Source: Escherichia phage EC.P2. Taken from it: DNA of 64,000 nt. Each line of letters starts with the position of its first letter. Position 1 is the stretch's first letter. Shown here one piece after another: positions 5,798 through 21,798 of this stretch. The notes below the pieces were generated by a model. It ran no database searches. It was given only the letters and a program-made list of their open reading frames with translations, and was not told the DNA's origin. The DNA lies in the sequence record PQ631072.1; one strand, written 5' to 3'. Both the position numbers and the translations under genes were made by a program.

Positions 5798-7957
5798 ATG
5801 AAACAGGCTATTTTTACTGTAACTCGAAATACGAGAGTAAATGCCAGTTCATTCAGCTATAAGACCGTCGATGGAACGGCGGTCGCTGGTAGAGATTATG
5901 TAGCTAAACAGGGAACAGTAACGTTCCCTTCTGATGCAGATTCTGCTACTGTAGTGGTTGATGTATATGAACGTCCGGCAAACTCTTTAGATCTTTATTT
6001 TACTCTTGAGATTACTAGCATAAGTCAAAATAACATGATGATCAATGAAGAAATTCGTTGTGTTATTACGACTGATCAATCGAATACAACCCCGCTAACT
6101 TGGCCTGTTGTGAAGTCTAGAATGTTTGATCCTAAGTTTTGGACAATAGATTCTCAAGCAACAGAAAGTTGTTCTATTATCTCTAATGGTGATTCTTTCA
6201 CAGCAAGAATGGTTAATAGGACAGTGGCTGGTCTTGCTGGGATTATTTGGTCAACTTACGATAAATATGATCACAAAGGATTAGGCTACCAAGAACATTC
6301 TGACTTAAGTAAAGAGAAACTTTGGTTTAAAATGGAACTTAGTCAAGGTGTTCCTGGATTAAAAGAAGAAAAATTAATACCATCCTTAACAGTGACACTG
6401 AAGGATGAAACAGTTCATTATGTATCTCTAAACTTTTATGCAGAAGAAGTTTCAGAAGATGGTAAGACAGCAACAATCAAATTAGATTTCTCAAACTTAA
6501 AATCGGGGCCAGAAAATGATATTGTTGTTGACACTACACAAATAGATAATATGTTCTTCTCCTTGATCTCAACGAGGTATCAAGAAATTGAAGATATTAT
6601 TCCTGTAGACAATGAGGATCTTTCCTTTAAGTTTACCATACTGGAGCCTGATACTGGTTACAGTATGATGAATATGGGTAATTTAAATGTTCCAGCACAC
6701 ACCATAAGAATGTGTACATCTTATGATGATATGTATAACCTGACCCCAGAGCGAGTTATTTCTAACACCTACAGATTAGGTTATAGGGATATGATTAACC
6801 ACTATAATGGTATGTCACACTATTATCAGTTTAGTTGGGATGCTGGTTCTAATAAATGGGCTTTGAATAGAACAGAATATTTAAACCCAGCAACAGAAGC
6901 ATGGTTTGATAATTTCCACGCTAATGCAAAAGCTATGGGCTACACAGTAATGAATTCCTTAAGTTTTGAACTTATGAGTACAGTGTGTCCTGTAGAATGG
7001 GTACAACATGCTTGGAATGATGATCTTGCTGCTACAGGTTATGAGCCACCAAGTTATGTTTTATCTCCTTCAATTGATGAAGGGATGAATTATTTACAAG
7101 GTGTAATAAATAAGATAGCTTCTATATCCGCTGCTAATGATCTTCCAGTTATTATTCAGGTTGGTGAACCGTGGTGGTGGTATAACACAGCTACCAATCT
7201 ACCGTGTATTTATGATTATACAACCAAAGTTGCATTTAATAATGAAACTGGATTGTATGCACAAGATGTTGGTACAGTTAAAAATTATAAAACTGGTACA
7301 CCATATGATGAATATTATGCCTTCCTATCTAAAACATTAGGACTGCGTGTTGCTAAATTTGCAACAGATACCAGATTAGCATATCCTGGAGCTAAAGTTA
7401 CATTGTTACCATTTGTGCCATCCATTTTGGGTAATGGTATGATGGAGTTTGTTAACTTCCCTAAAGATTATTATATCCCAGAAAACTTTGACTTTTATTG
7501 TTCAGAATGTTATGATTGGTTGTTGGAAGGTAAGATGGAAAGATCTTTTGACGCTATCACAATACCTAATGAGCAACTAGGTTTTAGTTATGATAAGATA
7601 CATTATCTTGCAGGGTTTGTTCCAGATGCAACTCTAGCACCATTATATGGCTTTGATCCTGAATCAAACTATAGAACATATTTGTGGAAAATGATTATAG
7701 GCAATATTGTATTGAATGACCAGAAGTTTGTTGGTTTATATCAATACATATGGGCTTACCCGCAAATAATGCATGATTCAATAACTGTTCTTAATTCAAA
7801 ATCCCAAGTGTTTTATATGGGTAATGTGCCTTTGAATTGCTACTTGCAAGATATCACTCTTAAACAGGTAAATGTTGAGATTGCCACTATAAGTGGAATT
7901 ACATTAGCCACTAAATCTGGAGAAGATTTAGTAACAACACAAAAATTTTATATATAG
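5798..7957 (+). CDS. virion structural protein with N-terminal Calx-beta-like domain
   Basis: 719 aa; N-terminal segment VAGRDYVAKQGTVTFPSDADSATVVVDV resembles Calx-beta motif. Confidence 0.4.
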   Translation: MKQAIFTVTRNTRVNASSFSYKTVDGTAVAGRDYVAKQGTVTFPSDADSATVVVDVYERPANSLDLYFTLEITSISQNNMMINEEIRCVITTDQSNTTPLTWPVVKSRMFDPKFWTIDSQATESCSIISNGDSFTARMVNRTVAGLAGIIWSTYDKYDHKGLGYQEHSDLSKEKLWFKMELSQGVPGLKEEKLIPSLTVTLKDETVHYVSLNFYAEEVSEDGKTATIKLDFSNLKSGPENDIVVDTTQIDNMFFSLISTRYQEIEDIIPVDNEDLSFKFTILEPDTGYSMMNMGNLNVPAHTIRMCTSYDDMYNLTPERVISNTYRLGYRDMINHYNGMSHYYQFSWDAGSNKWALNRTEYLNPATEAWFDNFHANAKAMGYTVMNSLSFELMSTVCPVEWVQHAWNDDLAATGYEPPSYVLSPSIDEGMNYLQGVINKIASISAANDLPVIIQVGEPWWWYNTATNLPCIYDYTTKVAFNNETGLYAQDVGTVKNYKTGTPYDEYYAFLSKTLGLRVAKFATDTRLAYPGAKVTLLPFVPSILGNGMMEFVNFPKDYYIPENFDFYCSECYDWLLEGKMERSFDAITIPNEQLGFSYDKIHYLAGFVPDATLAPLYGFDPESNYRTYLWKMIIGNIVLNDQKFVGLYQYIWAYPQIMHDSITVLNSKSQVFYMGNVPLNCYLQDITLKQVNVEIATISGITLATKSGEDLVTTQKFYI

Positions 7958-16941: not shown

Positions 16942-18912
16942 GTGATTTTAACACGTCCAAATAGTGCCATTGCAGACATGGTAGAGTCTCGCTATAGAAA
17001 GCGTAGAAGTTTTGCAAGTGGTTTTACCTTAAGAGATGCTCGTGAAGCATTGCTCTTTGAAGCTGACGGTAACTACTATCAGTGGAAAGGTTCTCTACCT
17101 AAAGTTGTACCTGCTAACTCTACTCCTACATCCACTGGAGGGATTTCAGATACAGCTTGGAAAAATGTGGGTAATGCAGATGACATTGCTCAAATAGAAT
17201 CAGAATTAGATGCTATTGAAGCTGAAATTGAAGATCTTAGAGAATCCATCCCAGAAGCTGGTAAATCAGCTTACCAGATTGCCGTAGACAATGGTTTCCA
17301 AGGTACTGAGACACAGTGGTTGGCTTCTTTAAAAGGTGATCCAGGCGCTCCATTAAAGCTATTAGGGACACTATCTAATACCAACCAATTACCTACAAGT
17401 GGAAACAATGCAGGGGATGCATGGATTGTAGGCGAGAATATGTATGCTTGGGATGGTACTGCTTGGAGAAAAGTAAACTCACAGGGGCCAGAAGGTAAGT
17501 CTGCTTATGAAGTATGGCTTGCAGCAGGAAACCAAGGTACAGAACTAGACTATCTTGCTTCAATTAAAGGTGATAAAGGGGAGCCTGGCCCAGAGGGGCC
17601 ACAAGGTGTGCCAGGTAACAATGCTAATGGTTTTGATTACCAAGGCGCAGCTAATTCCGTTTCAGATCTTCCTTCTGCATCTCATGGAAACACATCTCAA
17701 GCATGGAGTGTTGGTACATATCTATACGTGTCAAACGGTGTAGAATGGATCAATATGGGCGCTATAGTGGGGCCAAAAGGAGATAAAGGCGACAAAGGAG
17801 ATAAGGGTAACACTGGTGATTCAGCTTATCAAGTCTGGTTAAATGCTGGTAACGTTGGTACTATTGACGAATATATTGCCTCTCTGAAAGGAGAAAAAGG
17901 TGATAAGGGAGACAAGGGTGATCAAGGTGCACAGGGTATACAAGGCTTGACGGGGCCAACTGGTGCAGGGTTGACCATTATTGACATTCTGACTAGCACT
18001 TCTGAACTGCCACAAACTGGGGAAGATGGTGATGGTTATCTGATCAATAGTGAACTTTGGGTCTGGTTGCAAGGAGCCACAGAGTGGACAAATGTTGGTC
18101 GTTTAGCTGGTACTCCAATCACTGCAAAAGGACACGTTGCGTCTGCAAGTGCGCTTCCTCCTACAGCCAATTACGGTGATGCTTATCTGACGGAAGATAC
18201 AGGTCATCTTTACATTTACACCTATAATGAACAAACTCAAACTGCTGAATATGTAGATATGGGTAGTTTGAAAGGTGATAAGGGTGAAAAAGGTGAGAAA
18301 GGTGACGCTGGTACTAACGGTACAGACGGTGCAACTTGGATTGTTAAAACAACAGATCCAATCTCTAGTGATGGTAAACAAGGTGATTATGCCTTTAATA
18401 TCTCCACTGGCGAGGTGTTCTTAAAAACATCTGCAACTGTCTGGACTTCTCAAGGTACACTACCTAGTATCACAGATGCACCTAGTGATGGTAAGACTTA
18501 TGCTCGTAAAGATGGGGCATGGGAAGAACTCACTAATTCTGTAGATGGTCAAGATATAGTTCCAACAAAAGTAACAACTAATTTTATAGAGGTTACAGCA
18601 TATACCAACAATTCTGTTACAGGGGACTGGACACCTCCAGGAACACATAACATGAATGTGTTGAATCTTACTGGTAACGCTACTATAAAAGCATGGCCTG
18701 GTGTCGAAGATAGTACAAAACCTAAACCATTCTCTGCAATAGTTTATCTTATCCAAGATGCCACTGGAGGTCGTACTGTTACTTTAGATCCATCTTACAA
18801 AGTAATTGGTTCCAGTGATATTAATACAGATCCTAACGGAGTAACAATACTACAACTAACATATTGTGGTGTTGGCGATTACGTGGATGCTATTGTTGCT
18901 AAACGCACATAA
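16942..18912 (+). CDS. tail fibre with collagen-like Gly-X-Y runs and phage-fibre repeats
   Basis: 656 aa, GTG start with AAAGGAG upstream; GDKGEPGPEGPQGVPG, GPKGDKGDKGDKGNTGD, GEKGDKGDKGDQGAQGIQGLTGPTGAG, GDKGEKGEKGDAGTNGTDG; three copies of SAYQ-W-AGN-GT-DYLASLKG units. Confidence 0.65.
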   Translation: MILTRPNSAIADMVESRYRKRRSFASGFTLRDAREALLFEADGNYYQWKGSLPKVVPANSTPTSTGGISDTAWKNVGNADDIAQIESELDAIEAEIEDLRESIPEAGKSAYQIAVDNGFQGTETQWLASLKGDPGAPLKLLGTLSNTNQLPTSGNNAGDAWIVGENMYAWDGTAWRKVNSQGPEGKSAYEVWLAAGNQGTELDYLASIKGDKGEPGPEGPQGVPGNNANGFDYQGAANSVSDLPSASHGNTSQAWSVGTYLYVSNGVEWINMGAIVGPKGDKGDKGDKGNTGDSAYQVWLNAGNVGTIDEYIASLKGEKGDKGDKGDQGAQGIQGLTGPTGAGLTIIDILTSTSELPQTGEDGDGYLINSELWVWLQGATEWTNVGRLAGTPITAKGHVASASALPPTANYGDAYLTEDTGHLYIYTYNEQTQTAEYVDMGSLKGDKGEKGEKGDAGTNGTDGATWIVKTTDPISSDGKQGDYAFNISTGEVFLKTSATVWTSQGTLPSITDAPSDGKTYARKDGAWEELTNSVDGQDIVPTKVTTNFIEVTAYTNNSVTGDWTPPGTHNMNVLNLTGNATIKAWPGVEDSTKPKPFSAIVYLIQDATGGRTVTLDPSYKVIGSSDINTDPNGVTILQLTYCGVGDYVDAIVAKRT

Positions 18913-18914
18913 TC

Positions 18915-18940
18915 AAAGCCCCTTCGGGGGCTTATTATTT
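18915..18940 (+). terminator. rho-independent terminator
   Basis: AGCCCCTTCGGGGGCT hairpin then TATTATTT. Confidence 0.55.
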
Positions 18941-18951
18941 AAGGAGATTAA

Positions 18952-21771
18952 ATGTATCCTATTCCTTTATTTATGTCAACAACATCAGCTTCAGTAGTAA
19001 CAGCTACATCTATAACCACTTCCTCTATTGGTATTGCAATAGTTGGTAGTAAAAAGCAACTGACATACACAGTTTCACCGGAAGATGGTGCGTTATTTGA
19101 TATAGCTTTTTCATCTTCAGATAATACCAAAATGGTTATAGATAATAACGGTATGATGGAGTTTGTTGCTGAAGGCGGTTTTGATGCAATAATGACAGCT
19201 AAAAATAATTTAGGTGCTGTCTTAACTGATCAATCTGGTGGCTATGCTTCAGAATTAAGTGTGTACACTGAAAGTCTGTCTGCTATGGATGCAGGAACTA
19301 CTCAACAATTGGTTGCTACAATCAGTCCAGAAGGTGCTAAAGACCTTCCAGACATGGTAATTACGTACACCACAACAGATCCAGAAGTAGCTACTGTAAG
19401 CCCTACAGGATTAATAACTGCTCTTAAAGATGGCAGTTGCCGTATAGGTTGTACTGCAACTTATCAAGGAACAGTGGTGGCCTCTGATAGTTCTTATTTA
19501 GGTGTTAATGCTATTCCTGTTATTTCTAATGTAACAGCCGTGGCAAACAGCTATGGAGACATTCGTGTTGCTTGGGATGTAGCTGATCCGCTAGATGGTG
19601 ATACTTATACTGTAGAAGTATTAGATTTAAGTAATAACAGTGTCCAGTGGACTACAACAACCACGAATACTTACGCCTACTTTGATATCTCTGACTCTAT
19701 TCCTCTTTATGGGTTTGCTCCAACATACCTTAAAATTAGCGTTAAGAGCACCAAAGCAGCAGCCGTTATCTTTAATAACTCAATAGCTACAGATGATTCA
19801 TTCATTAAAGAAGTTATTGTCTTTGCTGGACAAGATAACGTAAATGCACACTTTACAGAACTATCTGGTGCAAATAAAGCAGCAATGAGTAGCACAACAA
19901 CCCGTAACGCATATGCTACGCAACGTGGTTTAGCAAATGCTGAAGTTCTTCCGTTAAATACAGCTTCTGGATCATCAGCAGCAGATAAATATGCTGACGA
20001 TAAAGCTGGAACAGGTACACCAGACAACTACTGGTATGATCTGGATAACACAGCAGATGGGCCATGCTTAACTAATTTTATCACTAAAGTCACACCTTAT
20101 GCAAGTAAGGTTAAAGCAATTATTTGGGGACAAGGTGAAAATGATGCTGTATCAGCATCTTCAACTGTTGCAGGTAGGTACAGTAACACTACACGTTACC
20201 ATGATGCTACGATAGCCATCTTTGATAAGATGCGTACAATAGTTCCTGCTTCTCAAGCAAAAATTGTTTGGCAGATCCTAGGACGTTCTTATCTATATGG
20301 TGTAGAAGTTAATGGTGTAGATTGGCAGAAATACAGAAATGTACAAAGAACCATCTCTACAGCACGTGACGATGTTATCATTGGTTCTTGGGTAGATGGT
20401 GCTGAACGTTACAGTGGCTATGCTTATGAAGAAGGTATTGATGGTCGTATCCATTATATTTCTTCTGTATACCAGACAGCAGCTACAAAACTTGCTAAAT
20501 CAGCAGCAGACGGTACAGACCTAACATCAACGTCACCTGTTTGGGTTGATATGGCTGTTCCAACTGGAGCAACAGCTACTTCCCAGTCTAATCAAGATAC
20601 AATTTTAGCATGGGATGCTCAAGGTTATAGTAAACACTACTTCCGTAATATTAACGTCTTAACAGCATCTGTATTAACTGAACAAACGCTTAATACGAAC
20701 AGTTATACGTTTACCTATGCAGATCAAGTAGAACAATATGGTTTTGCAGCAGGTACTACGATATTTGATGTTGCATATTATGACGAAGCAAATGATGTGT
20801 TATCTCCTTTAGTACGTTTTAATGTTAGCGTTACAGCAGGAAAAGTAGAAGATAAACCTGTCGTGATGGACTATGATTTGACACAAGAAACTCTTCCATC
20901 AGATGTTAAGGTTAATGGTGGGAACTCTTTTGCTCGTGCTTCTGGAGATACACTTGTAGCCACTAACACCTTGGTTGCTCCGTTGGAGTATGTTGGCACT
21001 ACCCCTGTAGGTAGACGTGTAACAGCTAACACAGCTACACAAATTTTTGTCAACAACGCCTTAACAAGCGCAAGCCCGTGGGTAAAGACCAACTTAACTG
21101 TTGCATCTTCATCTGATAAATCTCCGGCTGGAACTACTGCTAATGTATTCAAATTAACTCCGACTACAACTTCTGGTAGTCATATCTTAACTGCAACATA
21201 TACTAACGCGTACAACATATCTGCCGGACGTAACTGGTCTGCCTCTGTTTTCTTGAAAGCGAACGGGATTACTAAGGCCAAACTAAGATTAAAAGCAGGG
21301 ACTGAAGTTAATGAAGGTACTTTTGATTTAGCAGCAGGTACATTCACAGGAAGTGAAGCTAATATTATATCTATGGGCAACGGTTGGTATCGTGCTATTC
21401 TGCATAAAACAGGAATAGCCAAACAGTCCTCCATAAGTTTTGAAATAATTGCCTTGGATGCAACTGGTGCGGAGATTTTCGCTGGAGATGGTACTAGTAA
21501 CCTTGCAGTTTGGTTGCCACAGCTTGAAGGTGCTTCTACAGGAGAAACATCAAAAGCTGGATCGCCTTATGTCTGCACATATCCTGGAAATTTAGGAGGA
21601 GTATCCTTCACTATACCAAGGAACGGACATACTGGTGTGGATGTTTACTATTCCAACGGAGACGTTGTTCGTGACGTATTCTCTGGTACGGCATCTACTT
21701 GGACAATAAACTACTCCAGCTTGTACGATTGGGGATCAGTCTTTATTACAGGTTTGAAATATTACGACTAA
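18952..21771 (+). CDS. tail fibre / receptor-binding protein with Big_2-like and SASA (sialate O-acetylesterase)-like domains
   Basis: 939 aa; Big_2-like segment (ATVSPTGLITALKDGSCRIGCTATYQG); esterase-like motifs VIVFAGQDN and AIIWGQGENDA (GQSN / QGExD pattern). Confidence 0.5.
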   Translation: MYPIPLFMSTTSASVVTATSITTSSIGIAIVGSKKQLTYTVSPEDGALFDIAFSSSDNTKMVIDNNGMMEFVAEGGFDAIMTAKNNLGAVLTDQSGGYASELSVYTESLSAMDAGTTQQLVATISPEGAKDLPDMVITYTTTDPEVATVSPTGLITALKDGSCRIGCTATYQGTVVASDSSYLGVNAIPVISNVTAVANSYGDIRVAWDVADPLDGDTYTVEVLDLSNNSVQWTTTTTNTYAYFDISDSIPLYGFAPTYLKISVKSTKAAAVIFNNSIATDDSFIKEVIVFAGQDNVNAHFTELSGANKAAMSSTTTRNAYATQRGLANAEVLPLNTASGSSAADKYADDKAGTGTPDNYWYDLDNTADGPCLTNFITKVTPYASKVKAIIWGQGENDAVSASSTVAGRYSNTTRYHDATIAIFDKMRTIVPASQAKIVWQILGRSYLYGVEVNGVDWQKYRNVQRTISTARDDVIIGSWVDGAERYSGYAYEEGIDGRIHYISSVYQTAATKLAKSAADGTDLTSTSPVWVDMAVPTGATATSQSNQDTILAWDAQGYSKHYFRNINVLTASVLTEQTLNTNSYTFTYADQVEQYGFAAGTTIFDVAYYDEANDVLSPLVRFNVSVTAGKVEDKPVVMDYDLTQETLPSDVKVNGGNSFARASGDTLVATNTLVAPLEYVGTTPVGRRVTANTATQIFVNNALTSASPWVKTNLTVASSSDKSPAGTTANVFKLTPTTTSGSHILTATYTNAYNISAGRNWSASVFLKANGITKAKLRLKAGTEVNEGTFDLAAGTFTGSEANIISMGNGWYRAILHKTGIAKQSSISFEIIALDATGAEIFAGDGTSNLAVWLPQLEGASTGETSKAGSPYVCTYPGNLGGVSFTIPRNGHTGVDVYYSNGDVVRDVFSGTASTWTINYSSLYDWGSVFITGLKYYD

Positions 21772-21772
21772 T

Positions 21773-21798
21773 AAAAAAGGAGCCATTAGGCTCCTTTT
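21773..21798. terminator. bidirectional terminator at convergent junction
   Basis: AAAAAAGGAGCCATTAGGCTCCTTTTCTTTT: hairpin flanked by A-run and T-run between convergent genes. Confidence 0.6.

Follow-up and report, generated by a model that had tools for sequence, protein, structure and literature searches.

The gene examined here occupies positions 18952-21771 of a 64,000-nucleotide stretch of Escherichia phage EC.P2 (record PQ631072.1). This stretch, called the window below, is a Justusliebigvirus genome (phi92-like, Stephanstirmvirinae), of the contractile-tailed myovirus type. The encoded 939-aa protein is the orthologue of PaulScherrer bas60_0037, of the PHB05 'tail protein' and of phi92 gp152+gp153, and the gene shares 97-99% DNA identity with its counterparts in W22, BME3, PHB05 and PaulScherrer (Bas60) by megablast. 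An earlier note, made from the sequence alone, had described this open reading frame (ORF), which is present exactly as claimed, as a receptor-binding fibre with an Ig-like segment and an O-acetylesterase of the SGNH/SASA type. The fold and the modular tail-protein character hold; an active catalysis is not supported. The central domain of the protein carries an aspartate at the position of the nucleophile serine, and this substitution suggests that an esterase has been converted into a conserved, non-catalytic module, which would sooner bind a sugar of the host surface than split it.

Layout of the 939-aa protein

The protein is built as a succession of modules whose coordinates are collected in Table 1. 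The Ig-like segment of the earlier note proved significant as two Big_2 domains, a region that also matches phrog_215 (aa 10-199) and PDB 6n1a; this N-terminal stalk is common to all architectural variants of the protein. The SGNH domain is flanked by two linker domains that we presume to be Ig/FN3-like beta domains, neither of them having a Pfam match. The second linker ends a conserved core of residues 1-628, which is where the Av-05 and phi92 proteins stop.

The C-terminal module is of another kind. Residues 694-863 score 69.5 bits against NCBIfam NF048003 ("phage head spike fiber domain"), above the curated cutoff of 36, and a profile of the C-terminal homologues matches the RcGTA head spike fibre Rcc01080 (6TB9) with an E-value of 4.5e-69, as well as tail fibre gp17, Pa193 gp46 and E217 gp45. 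Foldseek places the AlphaFold2 model of the module (pLDDT 78) close to baseplate proteins of Pa193 and E217 and to many carbohydrate-binding modules (CBM22, CBM61, CBM16). Rcc01080, Pa193 gp46 and E217 gp45 form a jelly-roll family of adsorption structures to which this domain also belongs; unlike in these proteins, the jelly-roll is fused here behind an Ig-SGNH string and is followed by about 75 extra C-terminal residues that are specific to close relatives. The module is allelic, with a nonsynonymous divergence (dN) of 0.29 relative to EmilieFrey.

The best PHROG matches of the protein, 32204 and 11922, are both 'tail protein', phrog_32204 spanning aa 1-628. Together with the Big_2 stalk, the CBM-like RcGTA-type end and the place of the gene at the end of the fibre cluster, they bear out the description of a modular protein of the tail or receptor-binding type. 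Searches of Pfam, PHROG and NCBIfam detected neither an N-terminal virion-anchor domain nor an element for trimerisation such as a coiled coil, a beta-helix, collagen or an intramolecular chaperone. Because of this the protein has the look of a monomeric adhesin, a string of beads as in N4 gp65, and not that of a classical trimeric fibre.

Table 1. Features of the 939-aa protein gene and its flanks, in window coordinates
Feature	Position	Strand	Detail
Terminator-like GC-rich hairpin	18916..18933	+	between the collagen-like fibre gene and the 939-aa gene; 7 pairs, 5 GC, T-rich tail
Ribosome-binding site AAGGAG	18941..18946	+	5 nt ahead of ATG
Tail protein ORF	18952..21771	+	ATG start, 939 aa, stop included
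Two Big_2 Ig-like domains, ~aa 26-191	19027..19524	+	Pfam Big_2 E 7.2e-14, two stretches
Linker domain a, aa 192-282	19525..19797	+	no Pfam match; within the tblastn alignment to N4 gp65 residues 619-1059
SGNH/SASA-fold domain, aa 283-535	19798..20556	+	HMMER homologues, family profile, AlphaFold2, Foldseek
Block I, G293-Q294-D295-N296	19828..19839	+	Asp295 (GAT, 19834-19836) at the nucleophile Ser position of GQSN
Block II glycine G340 (ASGSSA), oxyanion-hole position	19969..19971	+	Gly in 70/94 aligned copies
Block III, G393-Q-G-E-N-D398	20128..20145	+	family consensus; counterpart of YQGESD/HQGESD in SASA enzymes (PMC10792757)
Block V histidine H501 (RIHY)	20452..20454	+	consensus residue kept
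Linker domain b, aa 536-630	20557..20841	+	no family match; within the tblastn alignment to N4 gp65
Variable C-terminal module, aa 632-939	20845..21768	+	jelly-roll CBM-like domain and small terminal beta domain
RcGTA head-spike-fibre-type CBM-like domain, aa 694-863	21031..21540	+	NCBIfam NF048003
Terminator-like hairpin past the stop	21775..21798	+	between convergent gene blocks; 10 pairs, T-tail

The SGNH domain and its catalytic positions

Taken by itself, the 939-aa protein stays under the gathering threshold of Pfam SASA (PF03629), with 14.2 bits at full length and 17 bits for the domain alone against 24.8. An exhaustive HMMER search collected 76 homologues of the domain, where another homologue search gave just two near-identical fragments, and 18 of the 23 homologues that were aligned match SASA (best E 1.9e-13). 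The profile of this family recovers the SASA structures 1ZMB (E 3.4e-4) and 2APJ (E 3.9e-3) together with other GDSL enzymes, and finds two copies of the domain in phage N4 gp65 (E 2.4e-66). The AlphaFold2 model of the domain reaches a pLDDT of 95.5 and a pTM of 0.93. Its Foldseek matches are headed by N4 gp65 (E about 1e-13, TM 0.78), followed by 1ZMB (E 2.6e-6), 2APJ (E 4e-5) and a long further list of SGNH, GDSL and CE2 enzymes; in the viral library, the SGNH tailspikes of Vi06, ViI, Possum and PPWS4 show a distant structural likeness. The resemblance to SASA/SGNH proteins is therefore beyond chance, and it is visible through profiles and structure only. The homology to Pfam SASA itself is transitive, by way of the homologues, and residues 283-535 are a genuine SGNH/SASA domain by fold and descent, so that the earlier call of the fold was right.

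In SASA-type proteins the conserved blocks read GQSNM (block I, with the nucleophile serine), xGGxxx (II), xQGESD (III) and D-x-x-H (V), and among surveyed SGNH-fold structures block I always has its serine except in the RNA-binding, non-catalytic OSK domain of Oskar, where the residue is aspartate (PMC10792757); the glutamine of GQSNM has been given a role in the oxyanion hole (PMC12313940). The two motifs that had been read as an esterase signature are both present, VIVFAGQDN at aa 288-296 (nt 19813-19839) and AIIWGQGENDA at aa 389-399 (nt 20116-20148). The second contains block III; the first contains block I, but its GQDN carries a substitution of the catalytic serine. Of 70 aligned copies of the homologous domain, 51 have serine at this place, as do 1ZMB, 2APJ and NanS. 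Aspartate occurs in only five of the 70 copies: P0003 and the fragment P0002, which make up the protein's own cluster, the Av-05 type and two weakly aligned copies. It is nevertheless found in all orthologues examined (ALITA, PaulScherrer, EmilieFrey and the 41-47%-identical protein of Av-05) and in 13/13 members of the Av-05-like cluster. A sequencing error was considered for GQDN and ruled out, the GAT codon being two changes from an AGY serine codon and aspartate being present in every orthologue inspected. No serine is found in the VIVFAGQDNVNAHF stretch around the block I motif.

The remaining blocks are kept. The G340 region aligns with the SGGTAI/EGGSSI segments of 2APJ/1ZMB (PMC10792757), and the protein has the consensus residue at 15/15 invariant or nearly invariant columns of the family. 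The aspartate nearest to H501 is D497, at position H-4, the family acid usually lying at H-3 (DxxH); D497 is not conserved in close relatives, and close relatives that do bear the serine often have no block V aspartate (GWIHY), as in dyad enzymes such as NanS. To judge from the alignment, the nucleophile is the only hallmark residue that is replaced, the nearest candidate for the block V acid lying one residue off its usual place. The conservation of the triad, which the earlier note had proposed to check in this way, thus holds for His501, is shifted for the acid and is lost for the serine. The claim of an active O-acetylesterase is not supported, because the alignment, to which the note itself had tied that claim, does not show the nucleophile conserved.

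Across the family copies, the serine and the histidine are both present in 23 and both lost in 7, while the serine alone is lost in 4, the 939-aa protein among them. Because the two residues co-occur, the Ser-His dyad is what selection normally keeps, and its loss recurs in structural copies, including the second copy of N4 gp65. In the Av-05 sister lineage the oxyanion glutamine is also replaced (GGDN) and the block II glycine has become isoleucine, as expected if hydrolysis had already been lost in the common ancestor. The domain itself is under strong constraint: its ratio of nonsynonymous to synonymous substitution (dN/dS) of 0.07-0.10 is the lowest of five segments of the protein in both pairwise comparisons, with EmilieFrey and with PaulScherrer.

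Trimeric esterase spikes with a catalytic serine are known from phages of the G7C, Vi and Possum types. Like the present protein, these tailspikes and fibres (G7C gp63.1, the Vi-phage acetylesterases, Possum) carry an SGNH fold on the adsorption organelle, with a distant structural similarity; they are enzymes of the GDSL type, for G7C gp63.1 and Possum with catalytic activity according to the literature, whereas the domain described here is of the SASA/NCTSP type and bears the aspartate. The SASA or 'putative acetylxylan esterase-like' hydrolases (PF03629; 1ZMB, 2APJ, NanS 3PT5) share its fold and match it in blocks II (xGGxxx), III (QGExD) and V (His). It differs from them in having GQDN and not GQSN, hence no nucleophile serine, in its sub-threshold Pfam score and in being embedded between the beta domains of a phage structural protein. 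The OSK domain of Drosophila Oskar (PDB 5A4A), likewise SGNH-like in fold, naturally has aspartate for the block I serine (GDDFM) and is a non-catalytic binding domain (PMC10792757). It provides the precedent for an aspartate-bearing, non-enzymatic SGNH fold; it has no detectable sequence relationship to the 939-aa protein, binds RNA and not glycans, and has lost the other blocks too, whereas blocks II and III and the histidine are retained here.

Relatives, variants and neighbouring genes

The closest solved relative of residues ~192-610 is N4 gp65, a non-contractile tail sheath and receptor-binding protein (PDB 9LC0, 9YF4/5). It is found by phmmer with an E-value of 2.7e-11, and the homology to the central FN3-SGNH-FN3 region of gp65 is confirmed by phmmer, tblastn, profile and Foldseek. 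Each of the two is a tail protein made of several bead-like domains, from a phage that relies on the N4 glycan receptor (NGR) and the Nfr pathway (PMC8669472, PMC11990801), and both have SGNH-like domains departing from the canonical catalytic set; the first SGNH copy of N4 gp65 retains its serine (GESQ), where the 939-aa protein has aspartate. The differences concern the ends. N4 gp65 has 1382 aa and 10 domains, among them an NCTSP_N anchor and a plug-binding C-terminus, and wraps the tail tube of a podovirus as a heterodimer with gp64 (PMC13434306), whereas the 939-aa protein is that of a myovirus and is devoid of those ends, its ORF giving no Pfam match to the NCTSP_N anchor (PF23844) or the TIM-barrel partner (PF23845).

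These two families do occur elsewhere in the window. The 719-aa ORF at 5798-7957 (+) contains a Calx-beta domain, NCTSP_N (PF23844, E 4.9e-21) and the non-contractile-tail-sheath TIM barrel (PF23845, E 7.5e-82), and matches residues 107-367 of N4 gp64 by tblastn (E 5.6e-31) as well as short pieces of gp65. It is the 'glycan deacetylase' fibre that the BASEL papers tie to N4. The literature links N4, Vequintavirinae and phi92-like phages through a gp64-like deacetylase (PMC8594841), and all of them are NGR glycan and Nfr dependent (PMC8669472, PMC11990801). The 939-aa protein was itself considered as the BASEL "glycan deacetylase lateral tail fibre" and rejected, the gp64 homology mapping to ORF 5798-7957. 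Because this ORF is gp64-like and the 939-aa ORF corresponds to the middle of gp65, the comparison shows that the sheath modules of N4 gp64/gp65 are distributed over two proteins in this myovirus. In N4 itself, the family profile matches the first SGNH-like copy of gp65 (residues 430-601) over blocks I-III only (GESQ, GQGDQD), and the missing C-terminal part, including the 'QIHF' histidine block, is matched in residues 17-77 of gp64 (E 0.0035). This suggests a split SGNH domain that would be completed in trans within the gp64-gp65 heterodimer.

At this place in the genome three architectures are found: the full 939-aa form, a tip-less form and a cassette-less form. The tip-less proteins end at about aa 628 (Av-05, 647 aa; phi92). 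In the cassette-less form (P0079-P0081) the Big_2 stalk, in which aa 1-191 are conserved, is fused straight to the tip (aa 632-939). The latter form is a protein of 436-496 aa, found in P0079-P0081 and in the metagenome contig SRR30535871_56421 (locus L007, 8001-9491), from which the whole FN3-SGNH-FN3 cassette is missing; in these related phages it sits after genes for a colanidase-like and a collagen-like fibre. The phi92 orthologue (gp152+gp153; locus L004, 3405-5067) is broken up among three reading frames; aa 199-272, a part of linker domain a, and all that follows aa 628 are missing, and its block I falls outside both annotated coding sequences. It is apparently a pseudogene or the product of sequencing errors, and such a disrupted copy may explain why structural work on phi92 never assigned gp152/gp153. 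The ALITA orthologue (locus L001, 9001-11820) is interrupted by an in-frame stop at codon 720, through which the C-terminal tip would be lost; this is why its annotation shows a pair of genes, 'tail carbohydrate esterase' and 'tail protein'. Depositors have named orthologues "tail protein", "tail carbohydrate esterase" (ALITA, KMB37) and "non-contractile tail sheath" (KKE7M).

In the window, the gene closes a co-oriented block of baseplate and tail-fibre genes, being preceded there by those of a colanidase-type tailspike and, next to it, of a collagen-repeat fibre with a Tail_spike_N anchor. This neighbouring fibre (16942-18912, +; 656 aa, GTG start) has an anchor of the TSP1/Gp66 type, several collagen-like GxK/GDKGEKG repeats and a weak fibritin-C match, and is phi92 gp151, an unassigned fibre candidate of the 2026 cryo-electron microscopy (cryo-EM) paper on phi92. 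The ribosome-binding site is also annotated, as AGGAG, for gp152 in the phi92 record, and the Paula and PATM records have a terminator annotated somewhere under the megablast match to the 939-aa gene. A scan for sigma-70 promoters remained at background, with 15 found against 14.9 expected. The GC skew changes sign at about 22 kb, where the structural genes of the + strand meet the replication genes of the - strand, and again at about 60 kb, as would fit blocks of convergent and divergent transcription; the hairpin at 21775-21798 is located at the point of convergence.

A proposed path from esterase to sugar-binding module

The model we propose, in which we place about even confidence, is that the SGNH cassette is a conserved, non-catalytic derivative of a SASA esterase that would still bind sugar in its former active-site cleft, alongside a variable tip. 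The protein would lie at the periphery of the virion tail. Its domains are strung together like beads, the two Big_2 Ig domains being followed by a linker, the SGNH/SASA fold, a second linker and the variable CBM-like tip. The cassette descends from SASA-type serine esterases, its closest solved kin being the tandem SGNH-like domains in the middle of N4 gp65. In this lineage the nucleophile serine of GQSN has become aspartate (GQDN), and therefore the classical hydrolysis of esters through an acyl-enzyme would no longer be available. The pocket of the former active site would nevertheless have been kept as a non-catalytic sugar site, a lectin made out of an esterase, whose ligand may be an acetylated or amino sugar; we infer this retention because the block II glycine, QGExD and the histidine are kept and because the domain is under the strongest constraint in the protein. 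The cassette would add avidity or specificity to the CBM-like tip, which would bear the strain-variable specificity. What the analysis establishes is the ORF with its domain order, the fold and homology, the conserved exchange of Ser for Asp, the purifying selection and the modular variants; the location in the virion, the binding of a ligand and the lack of esterase activity are all deduced.

Several observations weigh against this model. For the presumed presence of the protein in the virion, the searchable literature yielded no virion proteome or mass-spectrometry evidence, and it gave nothing specific on an esterase activity of this protein; a recent cryo-EM study of phi92 lists gp15, gp140, gp150 and gp151 as fibre candidates and leaves gp152/gp153 unmentioned. 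A working catalytic site with an altered chemistry would account just as well for the conservation of the aspartate together with the histidine and blocks II and III. Furthermore, the phi92 copy is frameshifted, that of ALITA is prematurely stopped and natural variants exist without the whole cassette; for these reasons the cassette would seem dispensable in some backgrounds and might be just a spacer.

The altered chemistry would make the protein an active carbohydrate O-acetylesterase, with Asp295 acting as the nucleophile, or Asp295 and His501 activating a water molecule, and with capsule, O-antigen or another glycan being deacetylated at adsorption. The SGNH/SASA fold and homology, the retention of His501, the block II glycine and the QGEND of block III, the purifying selection on the domain and the strict conservation of Asp295 between lineages that are only ~41-47% identical all speak for such an enzyme, as do the existing name 'tail carbohydrate esterase' of orthologues in the databases and the well-known esterase tailspikes of other phages (G7C, Vi phages, Possum). 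We nevertheless consider it unlikely: the nucleophile serine is absent, with none in the stretch around the motif, the sole aspartate-bearing protein among the solved SGNH-fold structures surveyed in PMC10792757 is non-catalytic, the sister lineage has neither the oxyanion glutamine nor the block II glycine, the canonical DxxH acid is shifted, and the score lies under the Pfam SASA threshold.

Equally doubtful is the idea of a structural spacer or scaffold bead without any ligand site, comparable to the degenerate second copy of N4 gp65, in which case receptor recognition would be left to the C-terminal CBM-like module or to other fibres. In its favour, large structural proteins of phages often contain degenerate copies of this domain stripped of their residues, natural variants have the C-terminal module attached to the Big_2 stalk with no cassette in between, and the phi92 copy is disrupted. 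Unlike degenerate copies, however, the cassette is intact at His501, in blocks II and III and at every position invariant in the family; no other part of the protein has so low a dN/dS, and proteins of the Av-05 and phi92 type have the cassette but no C-terminal tip, an arrangement that makes little sense for a spacer. That the protein would not be a tail or receptor-binding component at all but, for example, a head decoration protein is highly improbable: the NF048003 match, the definition of phrog_215 ('head and packaging, structural protein with Ig domain'), the resemblance of the Ig domains to decoration proteins and the want of a recognisable N-terminal tail anchor, where the neighbouring fibre has Tail_spike_N, are opposed by the position of the gene at the end of the baseplate and tail-fibre block, by best PHROGs that are tail proteins, by a C-terminal fold shared with baseplate proteins of Pa193 and E217 and with tail fibre gp17, and by a middle homologous to the tail protein N4 gp65.

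Could the sugar-binding cassette of our model have a definite ligand? In a bolder version, which we regard as rather improbable, the Asp-for-Ser cassette would be an esterase turned lectin that holds an acetylated surface polymer without cleaving it, the ManNAc-based NGR being the obvious candidate, and together with ORF 5798-7957 it would represent the re-use by a myovirus of the N4 gp64/gp65 receptor apparatus as two tail proteins. A role of the 939-aa protein in the recognition of NGR or NfrA is speculative. A homologue was found in only 79 phage records, and no rV5-type Vequintavirus is among the matches listed, 29 of the 79 records not being displayed; since so few records have a homologue and the NGR-dependent rV5-type Vequintavirus is not among the listed matches, the idea of an NGR determinant has been given less weight.

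In conclusion, the databases already contain the gene with its esterase-like annotation, and phage adsorption proteins bearing an SGNH domain are known as well; we found, in the searchable literature, no description of a conserved Ser-to-Asp exchange with the other blocks intact, of the constraint on the domain, of the modularity of the cassette or of an explicit relationship to gp65. If the domain cannot hydrolyse esters, the label "tail carbohydrate esterase", which orthologues already receive from several annotation pipelines, misleads host-range prediction and the mining for depolymerases, and this in the phi92-like phages, which have a very broad host range and are therapeutically attractive. 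If our model is true, the conserved Asp-for-Ser SGNH fold would be a natural conversion of an enzyme into a binding module on the adsorption organelle of a phage. The homology to gp65 moreover connects the adsorption machinery of a podovirus with that of a myovirus, both of which depend on the poorly understood NGR glycan.

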